Of a DNA stretch of 64,000 nucleotides, positions 1,018 through 5,818 are shown one piece after another. Numbering within the stretch: the first letter of the stretch is position 1; each line of letters opens with the position of its first letter. Position numbers and translations under genes: made by a program. Below the pieces are notes generated by a model. It was not told where the DNA came from and searched no databases. It was given only the letters and a program-made list of their open reading frames with translations. Source of the stretch: Armatimonadota bacterium (lineage in GTDB: Bacteria > Armatimonadota > SYMT01); assembly GCA_041690135.1 (NCBI GenBank), contig JAWLHY010000015.1, forward strand, positions 1 through 64,000, given 5' to 3'.

Positions 1018-1144
1018 TCTCGATCCACGCCTCCTGTTCGGAAATCTACCACGGCCGCTGTGCCATGTCAACTTGAGGACGACTGTTAGACTAACATCAG
1101 TCATGTCGTTCCGAACGGGCCGTGTTCCATTCCGCAGTACAGGG

Positions 1145-1174
1145 TGGACGCTGGTCCGAACCATCCGGTATAAT
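1145..1174 (+). promoter_or_regulatory. putative sigma70 promoter for REC-GAF-PP2C operon
   Basis: TGGACG-N18-TATAAT, with the -10 ending 13 nt before ATG 1188. Confidence 0.5.
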
Positions 1175-1187
1175 TCCCAACGCGCGT

Positions 1188-2912
1188 ATGACACCGTCTG
1201 ACACATTGCAATCGAGTGAGCACTCCCTCAACCCAACTGCTCTCCTGGGCGAGCAGGGCCGACCGCGCGTCTTGATCGTGGATGACGAGCGGGACGCGCT
1301 GGAGACGATGGATGAGATCTTCAGCATGCTCGGCTTCCAGACGGAAACCGCCAGCACCGGGCGACAGGCGCTCGAGAAGCTGAACTCCGCCATGTTCCAC
1401 GTGGCGCTCCTGGATATCCACCTGCAGGATCCCGACCTTGACGGCACTGAACTGCTGAATGAGGCGCAGCGCCTTCAGCCGAACATGAAGTGCATCATGG
1501 TCACCGGCGATGAGTCGTGGGAGTCCGCGTCTCGATCCGCGGAGTTGGGCGCCTACTGGTACCTGCAAAAGCCAATCCGGGTGCCCTACGTCGAGGCCGT
1601 GGTCCGCAAGGCACTCGATCAGCAACGCCTGGAGGTGGAAGTCCTCGGCGTGTCGCACCTGGCTCGCGACCTGGTCGAACATGAAGGGCTGGAGGAGCGG
1701 CTCTCGCGGATCCTCAGCTATCTATTGACTGCCACCGGTGTGTCGCGCGGCGCCATGTGGATGGTGGAGAGGAATGCGCTCTGCCCGGTTCATGCCGAAG
1801 GCATCGAGACCGATCAGAAGCGCCGGCTCATGCGAGCCGAGGTTCCACTCGGAGAGCTTCCCGATGCCATCCGGCGGATCCTGGAGTCCGGAGATGCCAC
1901 TGTCGTGCCGGACGCGCGGAGTGCCGGGCTATTGCCCGATTACCTGATCGAGCGCTGGGGCGTTCAGTCGGCCTTACTACTGCCCTTTCAATCCGGCGGT
2001 AAGTTGATCGGCGCGGCTCTGCTTTCCGAACCGTTCGAAGCGCGACGCTTTACGGAGGATCAGATCCGCCAGGCACAGACCATCGCCTACCTGTCGGCGG
2101 TGGCCATCCAGCAGGCGAAAACGATCCAGGAAGAACGGAACACCCTCCGGACCCTGGCGGAGAGCTTCCTGAGCCAGCCGCCAAAAGTAGAAGGGGTGGA
2201 AATCGCCCGGCATTACGTGCCGTCGTTCGACGTGGCGCGCGTGGGCGGCGACTACTACGACTTCCTGCAGTTCGGTCGCGACCAGATCGGCATTGTGGTG
2301 GGGGATGTCTGCGGGAAGGGAGAGGCCGCCATCGGCTACGCCTTCCTGGCCAAGCACTTCCTCCGGGCCTACGCACTGGAAGACCCCGCCCCGGAGCGGG
2401 TCGTCAGCCGGCTAAACCGGGCCCTCTATCAGCAGATGTCCGCCATGTCCGAGGACGCCAACTTCTCGACCATTTTCTACGGCATCCTGAACGCGCGCAC
2501 CGGAGAGTTCACCTACACAAACGCAGGCCATCCGCGTCCGATCCTCTATCGATCTTCTACGGGAGAAGTCACTGAGCTGGCCCCGCCCCCCGACGTAGAG
2601 ACGACGGACGCCGACGGGCGCGGGTGGAAGCGCCCGCAAAACGGGATGGTGGGCGCCATCGAGGAGATGGACTTTTCCCAGATCAGCGTGCAAATGGAGC
2701 CCGGTAGTGTCCTCGCGCTTTTCACAGACGGAGTGACGGAGGCGCGGACGGAATACGACATGCTGGGCTCGGAAGGGGTAGAGACCGTCATTGCGGCCCA
2801 CGCGGGAGACTCGGCCCAGGCCATAGCCGACGCCGTGCTCGGACGTGCCCGCGAGTTCAGCGGCGGTGTTCTCCGCGATGACGTCGCGATCGTCGTCGTA
2901 AAGTATGGCTAG
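1188..2912 (+). CDS. REC-GAF-PP2C (SpoIIE/RsbU-like) phosphatase
   Basis: Receiver motifs VLIVDD, LLD, YLQKP; central GAF; PP2C motifs VGGDYYDF, VGDVCGKG, NAGHP, LFTDG, DD. Confidence 0.92.
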   Translation: MTPSDTLQSSEHSLNPTALLGEQGRPRVLIVDDERDALETMDEIFSMLGFQTETASTGRQALEKLNSAMFHVALLDIHLQDPDLDGTELLNEAQRLQPNMKCIMVTGDESWESASRSAELGAYWYLQKPIRVPYVEAVVRKALDQQRLEVEVLGVSHLARDLVEHEGLEERLSRILSYLLTATGVSRGAMWMVERNALCPVHAEGIETDQKRRLMRAEVPLGELPDAIRRILESGDATVVPDARSAGLLPDYLIERWGVQSALLLPFQSGGKLIGAALLSEPFEARRFTEDQIRQAQTIAYLSAVAIQQAKTIQEERNTLRTLAESFLSQPPKVEGVEIARHYVPSFDVARVGGDYYDFLQFGRDQIGIVVGDVCGKGEAAIGYAFLAKHFLRAYALEDPAPERVVSRLNRALYQQMSAMSEDANFSTIFYGILNARTGEFTYTNAGHPRPILYRSSTGEVTELAPPPDVETTDADGRGWKRPQNGMVGAIEEMDFSQISVQMEPGSVLALFTDGVTEARTEYDMLGSEGVETVIAAHAGDSAQAIADAVLGRAREFSGGVLRDDVAIVVVKYG

Positions 2913-3675
2913 CGAACCTCAAACGCCGCCGTCTCTCGACTGGACATTAGTGATCGAGGGAGCCCGGTCGTTCGGCGTCGATCTCCGGCCCGAGCAGGTT
3001 GCCGCTCTGGATCGGTATCTCGCTCTACTCCTGGAGTGGAACCAGCGCTTCAACCTGACGGCCATCGAGAATCCCGACGAGATTCTCACCAAGCACTTCC
3101 TCGACTCGCTCTCCTGCGCGCAAGCCCTCGACTTCAGCCAAAAACGCACGCTGATCGACGTGGGTACCGGTGCCGGGTTCCCTGGTATGGTGCTGAAGAT
3201 TGTTTACCCCCACCTTCAGGTCACCCTGCTGGACGCCGTGCAAAAGCGACTCAACTTCCTCCAACGGGTGGCGGAGGACCTGAGTCTTACCGGGCTGCAA
3301 ACGCTCCACGCTCGGGCGGAAGATGCAGCCGCCGTGGCCCCGCGTCCCGGCACCTGTCCCATCCCGGGTCTGCGCGAGTCCTTCGATGTAGTCGCCGCGC
3401 GGGCGGTGGCACGCCTGAACGTGCTGTCGGAATGGACCCTTCCCTTCGCACGCGTCGGCGGAGTCTTCATCGCTATGAAGGGACCCGATATTGCGGAAGA
3501 GGTCAAGGAAGCGGAAACGGCCCTGCGCCGCCTGGGGGGAGGGCCGGCGAGGAGCTACGTGTTCCAGCTTCCCGGTAGCGATCTGGGGCGCTCGCTGGTG
3601 GTAGTTCCGAAAGTCCGTCCTACTCCGCGCGATTTGCCCCGACTGCCGGGTACCGCGCGGAAATCCCCGCTGTAA
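2905..3675 (+). CDS. rsmG: 16S rRNA m7G527 methyltransferase
   Basis: WNQRFNLTAI, KHFLDS, DVGTGAGFPG, RAE, ARAVA, MKG, C-terminal PR.PG...K.PL. Confidence 0.96.
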   Translation: MASEPQTPPSLDWTLVIEGARSFGVDLRPEQVAALDRYLALLLEWNQRFNLTAIENPDEILTKHFLDSLSCAQALDFSQKRTLIDVGTGAGFPGMVLKIVYPHLQVTLLDAVQKRLNFLQRVAEDLSLTGLQTLHARAEDAAAVAPRPGTCPIPGLRESFDVVAARAVARLNVLSEWTLPFARVGGVFIAMKGPDIAEEVKEAETALRRLGGGPARSYVFQLPGSDLGRSLVVVPKVRPTPRDLPRLPGTARKSPL

Positions 3676-3775
3676 CTCGCTATAAATGGGAAAGAGAGTG
3701 CGGGAGTCCCGGCCGACAATCATGCAAGGCAGGGCCAGGTTGGGAGTGCTGCCGGTCCGTGGAGGCAAGTGAAGC

Positions 3776-4558
3776 GTGGAGCGAGGTCTACGAATCGGTG
3801 AGGCTCCTCTGAGCGTACAGGTAGTGGAACGCCCTCCTTACCTGGTCGCCCAGTGGATCGGTACGGGTCACGAAACCAGCCTGGAAGTGGCACGCAGGGC
3901 AGTCGCGGAGTTGTCGGCCCGCCTGTCGGAACGCCTGGTGCTGGAGCTGGGACGGCTCACGGATGTGGCCGATGGCTTGGTTCTGGCGCTGGCCGGCCTG
4001 GTCACGGAGTGGCAGCGCCACGGCCGCGACGTGGTGCTCGTGCGCTGCTCCGCCGATCTCTATAGCCGCCTCCGTGAGGCCGGGGTCCCGGGTGGCGTGA
4101 TGCACGCCGGCTCACTTCAGGCCGCAACGCAGGGCGTATGCGATGAGGCTTCCAGCGTGATGGAGCTCCACCTCAGCAGTTCACCCGTACACCTCTATCG
4201 GCTGCGCCGGGTGGTGGAGGTGGTCGCGCAACGCGCGGGCCTTTCCGCCGAAAGCGAGCTTCAACTCAAGGCCGCCGTTACCGAGGCGGCCGCCAATGCC
4301 GTGGCCCACGGATCTCCCCTGGGAGAACGAAACCACATCCGGGTCTCATTCAATCTCTCACCCGACGCATTGATCGTGGACGTAGCGGACCAGGGGCCTG
4401 GGTTTGATCCACAGGCCGTGGAGAGACCCGATCTGGACCTGCTGGACGCTAGCGGGCTGGGCCTGCACCTCATCCGCAACTCTGTGGATCGGGTCGAGTT
4501 CTTCCGAGACCACGCAGGGATGCTGGTTCGGATGACGAAGTGGCTCGGGTCGGCTTAA
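3776..4558 (+). CDS. degenerate STAS + RsbW-type anti-sigma kinase (HATPase_c) fusion
   Basis: C-terminal EAAANAVAHG, DQGPGFDP, GLGLHLI; N-terminal STAS-like alpha/beta segment. Confidence 0.82.
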   Translation: MERGLRIGEAPLSVQVVERPPYLVAQWIGTGHETSLEVARRAVAELSARLSERLVLELGRLTDVADGLVLALAGLVTEWQRHGRDVVLVRCSADLYSRLREAGVPGGVMHAGSLQAATQGVCDEASSVMELHLSSSPVHLYRLRRVVEVVAQRAGLSAESELQLKAAVTEAAANAVAHGSPLGERNHIRVSFNLSPDALIVDVADQGPGFDPQAVERPDLDLLDASGLGLHLIRNSVDRVEFFRDHAGMLVRMTKWLGSA

Positions 4559-4980
4559 AGGCCGGCGGAGCGGGCTAGCTCCTCAATCATGGTGCTGGAG
4601 TACTGGTCGTCGTAGGATGACCACCGCTCGCGGCTCCAGATTTCGATCCGGGGCCCGATTCCAACCACCATTACCTCGTGCTGAATGCCGGCCCACTCTC
4701 GCAAAACCGGCGGCACGGAGAGACGCCCCTGGCCATCCAGGCTGGTCGTCACGGCGGAACCGATAAAGTAGCGCTGGAGCGCCAGGTTCCCCGGGTCGAA
4801 CATGGATCCGCCCTGGAGACGCTCCTGCATGCGCTCCCACTGGGCCGAGGGAAGCACCCAGAGGTAGCGATCGTGACCGCGGGTGATGGTGAAGGAAGTG
4901 CCCAGACCATGAACGAACTCGGCCGGCATCTTCAGCCGGCCTTTGTCGTCTATGTGATATGGGTAAGAGCCCTGGAACAC
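4555..4980 (-). CDS. mraZ: transcriptional regulator MraZ
   Basis: MFQGSY..IDDKGRL..P, second repeat LDGQGRL.VP, VG...IEIWS; 141 aa. Confidence 0.95.
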   Translation of the reverse strand: MFQGSYPYHIDDKGRLKMPAEFVHGLGTSFTITRGHDRYLWVLPSAQWERMQERLQGGSMFDPGNLALQRYFIGSAVTTSLDGQGRLSVPPVLREWAGIQHEVMVVGIGPRIEIWSRERWSSYDDQYSSTMIEELARSAGL

Positions 4981-5011
4981 GCTTACCTCGCCCTACGGGC
5001 AACAGCGCGGA

Positions 5012-5632
5012 TCAGATCGCGATCGCCAGGTCCTCGGATTCCCACTCCGGACGCTCTTCCACGATCTCCGGCATCACCACCACTTCCACGTCCCGCGGCA
5101 CGCGCACGCGCCGGCGGTCGCGGGATACCAGGCCGCGAATGAACTCGTCTTCCGCCTCTTCCGCGTACTTGGAGGCGCACTTGGCGCAGTAGGCCAGGTG
5201 GAGCGGTTCCTCCACGTCCTTCAACTCCACCGTCGCCCGCGTCGGGAAGGGATCCACGCTTGCGCAAATCCCACAGTTCGGCAACTCCACCAGTTGCGAT
5301 TGCGAGTCCTCACAGAGGCTGCGCACCAGATCGTAAGTGACGTCGGAGAAGTTGCGCTCGACGACGGAGAAGAAGAACTGCGTTTTCAGCAGCCACTCGA
5401 TCTTTTCAAAGATCGAGGTATCCCCGTGGACCTGCACGCCGTAGGCCATTACCGTCCCGTGGGACACAGGAACCACCTGCGCCAGGCGCCCGACCATGTC
5501 GAAGAGGTCGCGAATCTGACGCATCTCCTTCTTGGAGCGCGCTTCCGCGAGGAAGACCGCCCGGCTGCCCGGGGAGGCGGGGAAGTAGTGGATGCGCGTC
5601 GCGTCCGTGCGTCGGGGGAGAAGTCTGGCCAT
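5012..5632 (-). CDS. hypothetical protein with two CxxC pairs (putative Zn finger)
   Basis: CGIC...CAKC; GGAAGGA RBS before ATG 5632; directly upstream of mraZ. Confidence 0.8.
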   Translation of the reverse strand: MARLLPRRTDATRIHYFPASPGSRAVFLAEARSKKEMRQIRDLFDMVGRLAQVVPVSHGTVMAYGVQVHGDTSIFEKIEWLLKTQFFFSVVERNFSDVTYDLVRSLCEDSQSQLVELPNCGICASVDPFPTRATVELKDVEEPLHLAYCAKCASKYAEEAEDEFIRGLVSRDRRRVRVPRDVEVVVMPEIVEERPEWESEDLAIAI

Positions 5633-5747
5633 GAGGAACCGTCCTTCCGACAATCGTCGGTGCCAACGTCGGCAGGGAGGGGGAACAACTTCAGGACGAG
5701 AAGGGTTCTGCGATCAACCAGATAGAGTGTGCGACTACACAGCTCTC

Positions 5748-5781
5748 CCCGTTTCAACCACTTTCCCCCACCTCATCCCAC
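5748..5781 (-). promoter_or_regulatory. MraZ-binding direct repeats
   Basis: Minus strand AAGTGGGATG-AGGTGGGGGA-AAGTGGTTGA-AACGGGGAGA: GTGG cores at an exact 10-bp period, as known upstream of mraZ. Confidence 0.8.
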
Positions 5782-5789
5782 TTGCGGAC

Positions 5790-5818
5790 ATTATAGCCCG
5801 GCCGTTTTGCCGTGTCAA
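5790..5818 (-). promoter_or_regulatory. consensus sigma70 promoter
   Basis: TTGACA (5818-5813)-N17-TATAAT (5795-5790) on the minus strand. Confidence 0.9.

Follow-up and report, generated by a model that had tools for sequence, protein, structure and literature searches.

Organization of the ZF-mraZ2 locus

The locus described in this work lies within a 64,000-nt stretch of DNA from an Armatimonadota bacterium (GenBank assembly GCA_041690135.1, contig JAWLHY010000015.1, positions 1 to 64,000), hereafter the window, which belongs to contig C15 of a 25-contig, 9.1-Mb assembly (G000). On the minus strand it contains a promoter, a putative operator for the transcriptional regulator MraZ, a gene for a predicted zinc-finger (ZF) protein of no named family, and a mraZ gene that is here termed mraZ2. 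The promoter is of the sigma-70 type (5790..5818; TTGACA at 5818-5813, a 17-nt spacer and TATAAT at 5795-5790) and, as the original prediction from this sequence had claimed, is a perfect match to consensus (12/12 positions). It was the sole promoter-like site detected between positions 3600 and 6400, where shuffled sequences gave a mean of 0.5. The putative operator (5748..5781) likewise had the predicted form of three GTGG cores (5781-5778, 5771-5768 and 5761-5758) followed by one degenerate core (CGGG, 5751-5748), all at an exact 10-bp period. The first box begins 8 nt past the -10 hexamer, and the boxes are expected to cover the transcription start.

The promoter is followed by a leader of approximately 150 nt (5633..5789), the ZF gene (5012..5632; 206 aa, ATG start), a 31-nt spacer (4981..5011) and mraZ2 (4555..4980; 141 aa, GTG start, Pfam MraZ E 5.5e-29). 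The leader carries a hairpin (CCGAC-GATT-GTCGG, 5660-5647) directly 5’ of the AAGGA ribosome-binding site of the ZF gene (5646-5642); this hairpin is kept only in the window’s own family of genomes, f1, where it was found at four loci with changes in the loop. The leader as a whole did not fold better than its shuffles (z -0.78) and matched no Rfam family. The ZF open reading frame (ORF) encodes two CxxC pairs (CxxC-x25-CxxC). The spacer between the two genes contains a GAGG ribosome-binding site, and neither a terminator-like site nor a promoter was found in it. The 3’ end of the mraZ2 ORF shares 4 nt, including the stop codon, with a convergent ORF (3776-4558, plus strand), in agreement with the overlap noted originally.

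Conservation of the promoter and box array

Conservation of these elements was assessed across the 30 best ZF loci, the window’s own included. A promoter of the form TTGACN-N17/18-TAnnAT lies upstream of the ZF gene in 29 of the 30 loci, and in 28 of the 30 the -10 hexamer is followed by two to five GTGG cores, mostly 10 bp apart. Weaker GGGG or TGGG boxes stand in the same register, e.g. …GGGGTA-N4-GTGGTA-N4-GTGGTA-N4-GGGGTA. Box position, period and core are constant in these 28 loci across wide sequence divergence and a range of G+C contents while the spacers differ, and such a combination of fixed cores and period with variable spacers is characteristic of direct repeats that are bound by a protein. 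The same order of genes, with promoter and box array, is found in about ten families. Of 5 genomes tested, 3 had a single occurrence of a strict three-box pattern, always at the ZF promoter, and a control in which the pattern was read backwards gave 0-1 matches per strand.

The MraZ operator described in one report consists of four GTG(G/T) boxes with 6-nt spacers and has the transcription start inside the first box (PMC12957436); for Bacillus subtilis, a preprint gives the operator as GTGG[A/T]G repeated three times (bioRxiv 10.1101/2022.02.09.479790). At the level of sequence, the boxes of the window and of its relatives match this experimentally defined MraZ box.

The abundance of the pattern was examined as well. 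The window has one triple GTGG-N6 array where 0.03 would be expected (100 shuffles, of which 3 had a match), and the 9.1-Mb genome has four, which is close to the chance number by our estimate; among these four sites, only that at the ZF promoter has a fourth box in register. The array is therefore not significant genome-wide by count alone and is convincing because of its position and its conservation in relatives. That it arose by chance in G+C-rich DNA, or serves an unrelated regulator, with ZF and mraZ2 linked for other reasons, would fit the near-chance count and the existence of an intergenic triple array on contig C1 with no promoter seen beside it. Such an origin is nonetheless highly improbable, given that position, period and core are kept where spacers vary, that GTGG pairs 10 bp apart number only 659 in 18.2 Mb (both strands), and that the boxes equal those defined by experiment.

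The intergenic array just mentioned (G000:C1:332377-332400, plus strand; L100:1878-1901) lies in a stretch of approximately 630 nt in which odd short repeats abound (GTGAAACGT…, CGCAATACG…). The remaining two triple sites overlap long ORFs in a mechanically generated ORF list. These three sites give no case for a wider MraZ2 regulon in the window’s genome.

Pairing of ZF with mraZ2 and its distribution

The ZF protein was detected in 52 of 401 genomes sampled from the phylum. By family, it was present in f3 (3/3), f6 (6/6), f8 (3/3), f19 (11/11), f22 (17/28) and f1 (4/6, in addition to the window genome), and the ZF-mraZ2 operon was accordingly seen in part of this one phylum, which is probably Armatimonadota. 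A mraZ gene lies directly downstream of ZF on the same strand in 28 of the 30 loci. Comparison of coordinates added 18 genomes with the ZF-mraZ2 order, giving 46 of the 52 ZF-bearing genomes; homologues of the ZF gene are thus linked to mraZ, which had been put forward originally as a point to be checked. In 20 of these 28 linked loci the genes are separated by 7-50 nt, and the longest spacer is 574 nt. None of the 28 has a dcw (division and cell wall) gene in the approximately 1 kb that follows.

The flanks of the pair are specific to families: a divergent alpha/beta hydrolase gene is present at 8 of 9 loci in f19, and a gene for a VTT-domain protein at three loci in f22. Since flanking genes are common only within families, only the ZF-mraZ2 pair itself is conserved across them. 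In the window, the convergent ORF at 3776-4558 matches HATPase_c_2, with a STAS match below the Pfam cut-off (19 vs 22.6 bits), and is kept in 3 of 5 f1 loci. The region at 1122-4558, adjacent to the operon, has the appearance of a partner-switching set, made up of a REC-GAF-SpoIIE phosphatase gene (1122-2912), rsmG (2905-3675) and this HATPase_c_2 gene.

RNA libraries were searched for the region. Seven runs contained 5-9% of the sampled words, and four of these were compared with the region. Short contigs from relatives (89-99% alike) cover parts of the ZF ORF and its leader; they derive from a single study, from two of its rhizosphere metatranscriptome runs, in which carry-over of DNA is possible, and are not usable as evidence of expression or of one transcript spanning both genes.

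mraZ2 as a paralogue of the dcw-linked mraZ

The window MraZ has two tandem MraZ domains (matches at G000:C15 4591-4764 and 4777-4977). It scores 96.6 bits against TIGR00242, marginally under the equivalog cut-off of 98.35, and matches the solved MraZ structures 1n0e and 9qlr by sequence with E-values of 1e-18 to 1e-19. Across 27 ZF-linked MraZ sequences, D11, G14, R15, D82, G85 and R86 are invariant and K13 nearly so, and both DxxxR motifs are kept. K13, R15 and R86 are named as MraZ DNA contacts in PMC12957436, and D11, K13, R15, D82 and R86 are contact residues whose roles are given in that report and in the B. subtilis preprint (bioRxiv 10.1101/2022.02.09.479790).

The original prediction was that this mraZ had become detached from the dcw cluster. 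As it stated, no rsmH, ftsL or ftsI follows mraZ2. In the window’s genome, rsmH was located on contig C9 (L007:10735-11805, minus strand), where it heads an apparent dcw row, judged by ORF order and size with only rsmH confirmed by a model. Upstream of this rsmH is a small 4Fe-4S-ferredoxin-like ORF, and neither a mraZ nor a GTGG array was found there. In five further f1 genomes, no MraZ match was found on the contig that carries rsmH; in G035, rsmH lies 237 nt from the contig start, and an adjacent mraZ is possible there. The search for a second mraZ in the window’s genome returned an MraZ-domain gene on contig C6 (L006:11391-12251, minus strand; 286 aa), whose product has a C-terminal extension of approximately 140 aa without a Pfam match and forms a long branch beside the ZF-linked MraZ of f1. 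Long MraZ-domain frames (287-328 aa) are also present in four f1 relatives.

In families f19, f3, f11, f31 and f43, a canonical mraZ-rsmH pair coexists with ZF-mraZ2. Other mraZ loci fetched from ZF-bearing genomes of these families have rsmH directly next in 16 of 19 cases, as do all 18 mraZ loci, hand-picked from the top of the match list, from eight families without ZF. At least three MraZ-domain matches, meaning more than one gene, were counted in 48 of the 52 ZF-bearing genomes and in approximately 18 of 349 others. A maximum-likelihood tree was built from 65 MraZ sequences (support given as UFBoot/SH-aLRT). In it, all 27 ZF-linked MraZ fall inside one group of 32 (91/83), within which a core clade from f19, f6, f22 and f43 is supported at 100/98. 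The dcw-linked MraZ of the same genomes fall outside the group except for L053, which is on a long branch; the other members that are not linked to ZF are three unlinked copies and the long-branch C6 protein.

Because the canonical pair coexists in sister families and the tree separates the copies, the window mraZ is, on this comparison, a paralogue (mraZ2) and not a displaced dcw gene. What stands of the detachment is that mraZ and rsmH are apart in the window’s genome, and displacement as its cause does not. Had the dcw mraZ moved away from rsmH together with its operator, with ZF inserted between operator and gene, then rsmH contigs lacking an MraZ match in the window genome and its five f1 relatives, and an rsmH preceded by a ferredoxin-like ORF without a GTGG array, would be expected. 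This history is very unlikely in view of the intact mraZ-rsmH pairs that coexist with the ZF-mraZ unit, the separate grouping of ZF-linked and dcw-linked copies from the same genomes (L053 excepted), and the short contig end in G035, beyond which a mraZ may adjoin rsmH. The simplest history begins with an old duplication, continues with the establishment of a ZF-mraZ2 operon and ends with family f1 losing its dcw-linked copy.

Predicted structure of the ZF protein

The ZF protein matched no Pfam, NCBIfam or PADLOC family. When the Pfam search was extended to E 5, only NifQ was returned at chance level (E 0.2), with no ACT or related domain and no zinc-ribbon model. A word-indexed search yielded 73 homologues, mostly of 206 aa and unnamed, and a full hidden Markov model search gave only 83 matches among 1.84 billion cluster representatives. 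Searches against genome contigs returned 0 relatives with the single ZF protein and, with alignment A1, three loci, all near relatives that had already been collected.

A model of the protein was built with AlphaFold2 from a 43-row alignment (pLDDT 87.8, pTM 0.80). In the model, residues ~10-110 adopt a ferredoxin-like beta-alpha-beta-beta-alpha-beta domain to which one further strand and one helix are added. Among VIA-align 2 matches, the C-terminal domain of MgtC ranked first (Z 8.7, root-mean-square deviation 2.2, 81 residues aligned), followed by TM1266 (Z 8.1), the ACT domain of RelA (Z 8.0) and IlvN (Z 6.8), to be read against a level of Z 7-8 that is commonly reached by unmatched models in its library. 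Foldseek against the Protein Data Bank (PDB) returned nothing for the model at E 0.001 or better, the alignment profile found only chance-level matches among PDB sequences (E 0.24 and 0.63), and the best score in the ESM Atlas (0.77, to viral hypothetical proteins) was below the useful range. The model suggests an ACT-like fold for the N-terminal part.

The four cysteines C120, C123, C149 and C152 are invariant in 43 ZF sequences and form two CxxC pairs 25 residues apart, which would make up a four-cysteine zinc knuckle (residues ~118-155). The C-terminal part folded alone reached a pLDDT of 77.8, with a weak best match (Z 4.5) to small zinc domains. The first CxxC pair is followed by (D/E)-P-F-P, a conserved motif that we know from no named family. 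Two family members are longer: P0090 (300 aa) has a 100-aa N-terminal extension with a faint, below-threshold match to HTH_Crp_2 (E 0.022), and P0086 (445 aa) a 250-aa C-terminal extension without a family match. An MraZ domain is absent from both, so they give no evidence of a ZF-MraZ fusion. Taken as modelled, the fold suggests a small regulatory or ligand-sensing protein.

Disorder is predicted for the tail of the protein (residues 192-206; pLDDT under 50). Close to the C-terminus, most families carry a basic stretch (…RSRSKKQ-IxFRIK), in place of which f1 has an acidic stretch followed by LAIA[GVI]. Non-polar C-terminal tails of the LAA type are linked to degradation by ClpXP, and the tail of the window protein (…LAIAI) had been likened to ssrA-type degrons. 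If recognized by ClpXP or a similar protease, the ZF protein would be unstable and its level would track promoter activity. The predicted disorder fits this, as do the ends of the near family, L-A-[IAM]-[AT]-[GVI] (LAIAG, LAIAV and LAAAG; LAIAI in the window), and the short non-polar tails of f3 and f19 (e.g. LAAAI, RAAAG, QFMIG and QFAVT). No ZF sequence ends in LAA itself, and f22 and f6 have no such tail and end after the basic strand (…IRFRIK, …LRYKIRSSAG). The degron is accordingly a weak proposal that we regard as doubtful, of which the disordered tail and the LAxA end in near relatives remain.

Natural separations and proposed regulation

ZF and mraZ2 are separated in a number of genomes. 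In f3, the ZF copy that matches best is on its own, followed by convergent genes, and has kept its promoter and three boxes (L022, L026), and mraZ2-like genes are found elsewhere, with a promoter and no boxes (L051, L057). In three genomes of one f22 genus (G143, G097 and G188; L081, L080 and L078, respectively), the same promoter and three boxes lie directly before mraZ2 and ZF is missing; other members of the genus keep ZF, and these loci look like a natural deletion of it. The boxes have thus stayed with ZF in f3 and with mraZ2 in the three ZF-less genomes. Divergent ZF paralogues, with 26-42% identity to the linked ones, have neither GTGG boxes nor a mraZ nearby; they occur in G001, G017, G063, G099, G332 and G050 (loci L092, L094, L096-L099, L048 and L091), and f3 genomes carry three ZF copies. 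In G050, ZF is present and no MraZ match was found anywhere in the genome. These separations speak for the ZF gene being under the control of an MraZ-type regulator and against its product being an obligatory subunit, and the paralogues without boxes or mraZ indicate that the ZF protein has a function of its own.

The best reading of the locus, to which we assign a probability of roughly 70%, is an operon autorepressed by MraZ2 with the ZF protein as its main cargo. An old duplication of the dcw repressor MraZ would have given rise to MraZ2, which would bind the three to four GTGG boxes just past the -10 hexamer, over the expected transcription start, and so repress its own promoter. Such autorepression would set the level of the first gene product, the ZF protein, whose gene would be the main dedicated target of MraZ2 and perhaps its only one. 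The sequences compared share a conserved gene order, promoter, box array and set of DNA-contact residues; from these we infer box binding, repression and co-transcription of the two genes, and the role proposed for ZF is conditional in the same way. The autoregulated two-gene unit of the original prediction is upheld to this extent, by comparison of loci across about ten families.

Several observations weigh against this reading. The tree group of ZF-linked MraZ is moderately supported (91/83) and includes both L053 and the long-branch 286-aa MraZ of the window’s genome. The promoters of dcw-linked mraZ genes bear similar boxes, so that either paralogue might act at either site. Two of the 30 loci depart from the pattern, L012 having neither a promoter match nor a GTGG pair and L023 only one GTGG core; the strict three-box pattern was absent from 2 of the 5 genomes tested; and the count of triple arrays in the window’s genome is near chance, as described above. 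The longer ZF-mraZ2 spacers of f6 (107-574 nt) hold hairpins, which are G+C-rich in L017, L025 and L027 (107-146 nt), and read-through into mraZ2 may therefore be attenuated; the hairpins could function as attenuators or in RNA processing, with a lower ratio of mraZ2 to ZF as the outcome. Lastly, no RNA contig bridged the ZF-mraZ2 junction under a 31-letter rule, among the short contigs of the four runs compared.

The ZF protein might instead be a direct partner of MraZ2, as a co-repressor, an anti-repressor or one half of a toxin-antitoxin-like pair. It would then use its ACT-like and zinc domains to sense a ligand, a metal or redox state and alter DNA binding by MraZ2, the two forming a sensor-regulator switch. 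The close linkage of the genes across short spacers (46 of the 52 genomes with ZF) is consistent with a partnership, as are the ACT-like N-terminal fold (MgtC C-terminal domain Z 8.7; RelA ACT Z 8.0), the sub-threshold HTH_Crp_2 match in the extension of P0090, and the Pfam description of MraZ as ‘putative antitoxin-like’. AbrB-fold antitoxins autoregulate jointly with their partners, which points the same way. The natural separations make a partnership rather unlikely: divergent ZF paralogues lack boxes and mraZ, G050 has no MraZ match at all, the operator and mraZ2 occur without ZF in three genomes, and the two genes are unlinked in f3. In most families, moreover, ZF is present either in every genome or in none, and the MraZ tree tracks family membership, unlike a mobile toxin-antitoxin module; ZF also has no PADLOC or Pfam match. 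Prediction of a complex of MraZ2 and ZF from alignments scored 0.00 in both runs; these were made without controls, and the score counts neither way.

Taken further, the ZF protein could be the first protein known to act as an effector of an MraZ-family regulator. With its ACT-like domain and zinc site as sensors of a metabolite, a metal or a redox signal, it would bind the MraZ2 oligomer and open it or lock it on its boxes. The locus would then be a self-contained sensory switch, possibly coupling the signal to division through the dcw-promoter boxes where both paralogues are kept. We offer this as speculation and think it improbable.

Comparison with known systems

MraZ is among the most widely conserved bacterial regulators, and to our knowledge repression of its own dcw operon is the one role with which it has been firmly linked. 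A literature search, which did not cover all journals, found no published mraZ paralogue with a partner gene. At this locus, a second and anciently duplicated MraZ lineage appears to keep the operator logic and to aim it at a different gene, which encodes a protein of an uncharacterised family; the two genes have stayed together in many soil-dwelling relatives. The natural variants (a lone ZF gene with boxes, a lone mraZ2 with boxes, and f1 without a dcw copy) point to the ZF gene as the regulated target. The system is small, with one protein and one 34-bp site, and should be tractable in Escherichia coli; it thereby offers a route to MraZ-type roles outside the division cluster.

The closest known system is MraZ at the mra/dcw promoter of E. 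coli, B. subtilis and Mycoplasma. Shared with it are the two MraZ domains, the DxxxR motifs, the arrangement of three to four GTG(G/T) boxes with 6-nt spacers at a promoter and, as predicted, over the transcription start, and the placement of the regulator gene within the operon that it would repress. In contrast to dcw mraZ, mraZ2 is the second gene behind an unrelated ORF, does not head a dcw cluster and is not followed by rsmH. It belongs to a paralogous lineage that coexists with canonical mraZ-rsmH in most ZF-bearing families checked, and it scores just under the TIGR00242 cut-off (96.6 vs 98.35 bits).

For the ZF protein, the nearest likenesses are structural. Residues ~20-100 of the model have the strand-helix order of ACT and RAM domains (RelA ACT, IlvN, Lrp RAM and the MgtC C-terminal domain), from which the protein differs in having no sequence match, an extra N-terminal strand and a fused zinc knuckle. 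With zinc ribbons and knuckles (eS27-type, RING/ZZ-like) it shares two CxxC pairs flanked by short strands, whereas its C-terminal part reaches a best Z of only 4.5 and has no Pfam zinc-ribbon match.

A type II toxin-antitoxin module was considered and rejected: no Pfam, NCBIfam or PADLOC toxin match was found, and in most families the distribution is all-or-none and not patchy. With MazEF-type systems the locus has in common two small adjacent genes, a DNA binder of the AbrB superfamily and an operator at the promoter. Unlike them, ZF-mraZ2 has a vertical distribution by family, is mostly present in one copy per genome, has no toxin or defence match, and either gene can occur without the other. 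MraZ also binds direct repeats as a large oligomer (PMC12957436). Judged by these likenesses and differences, ZF-mraZ2 would combine a known mode of regulation with cargo from a new protein family.

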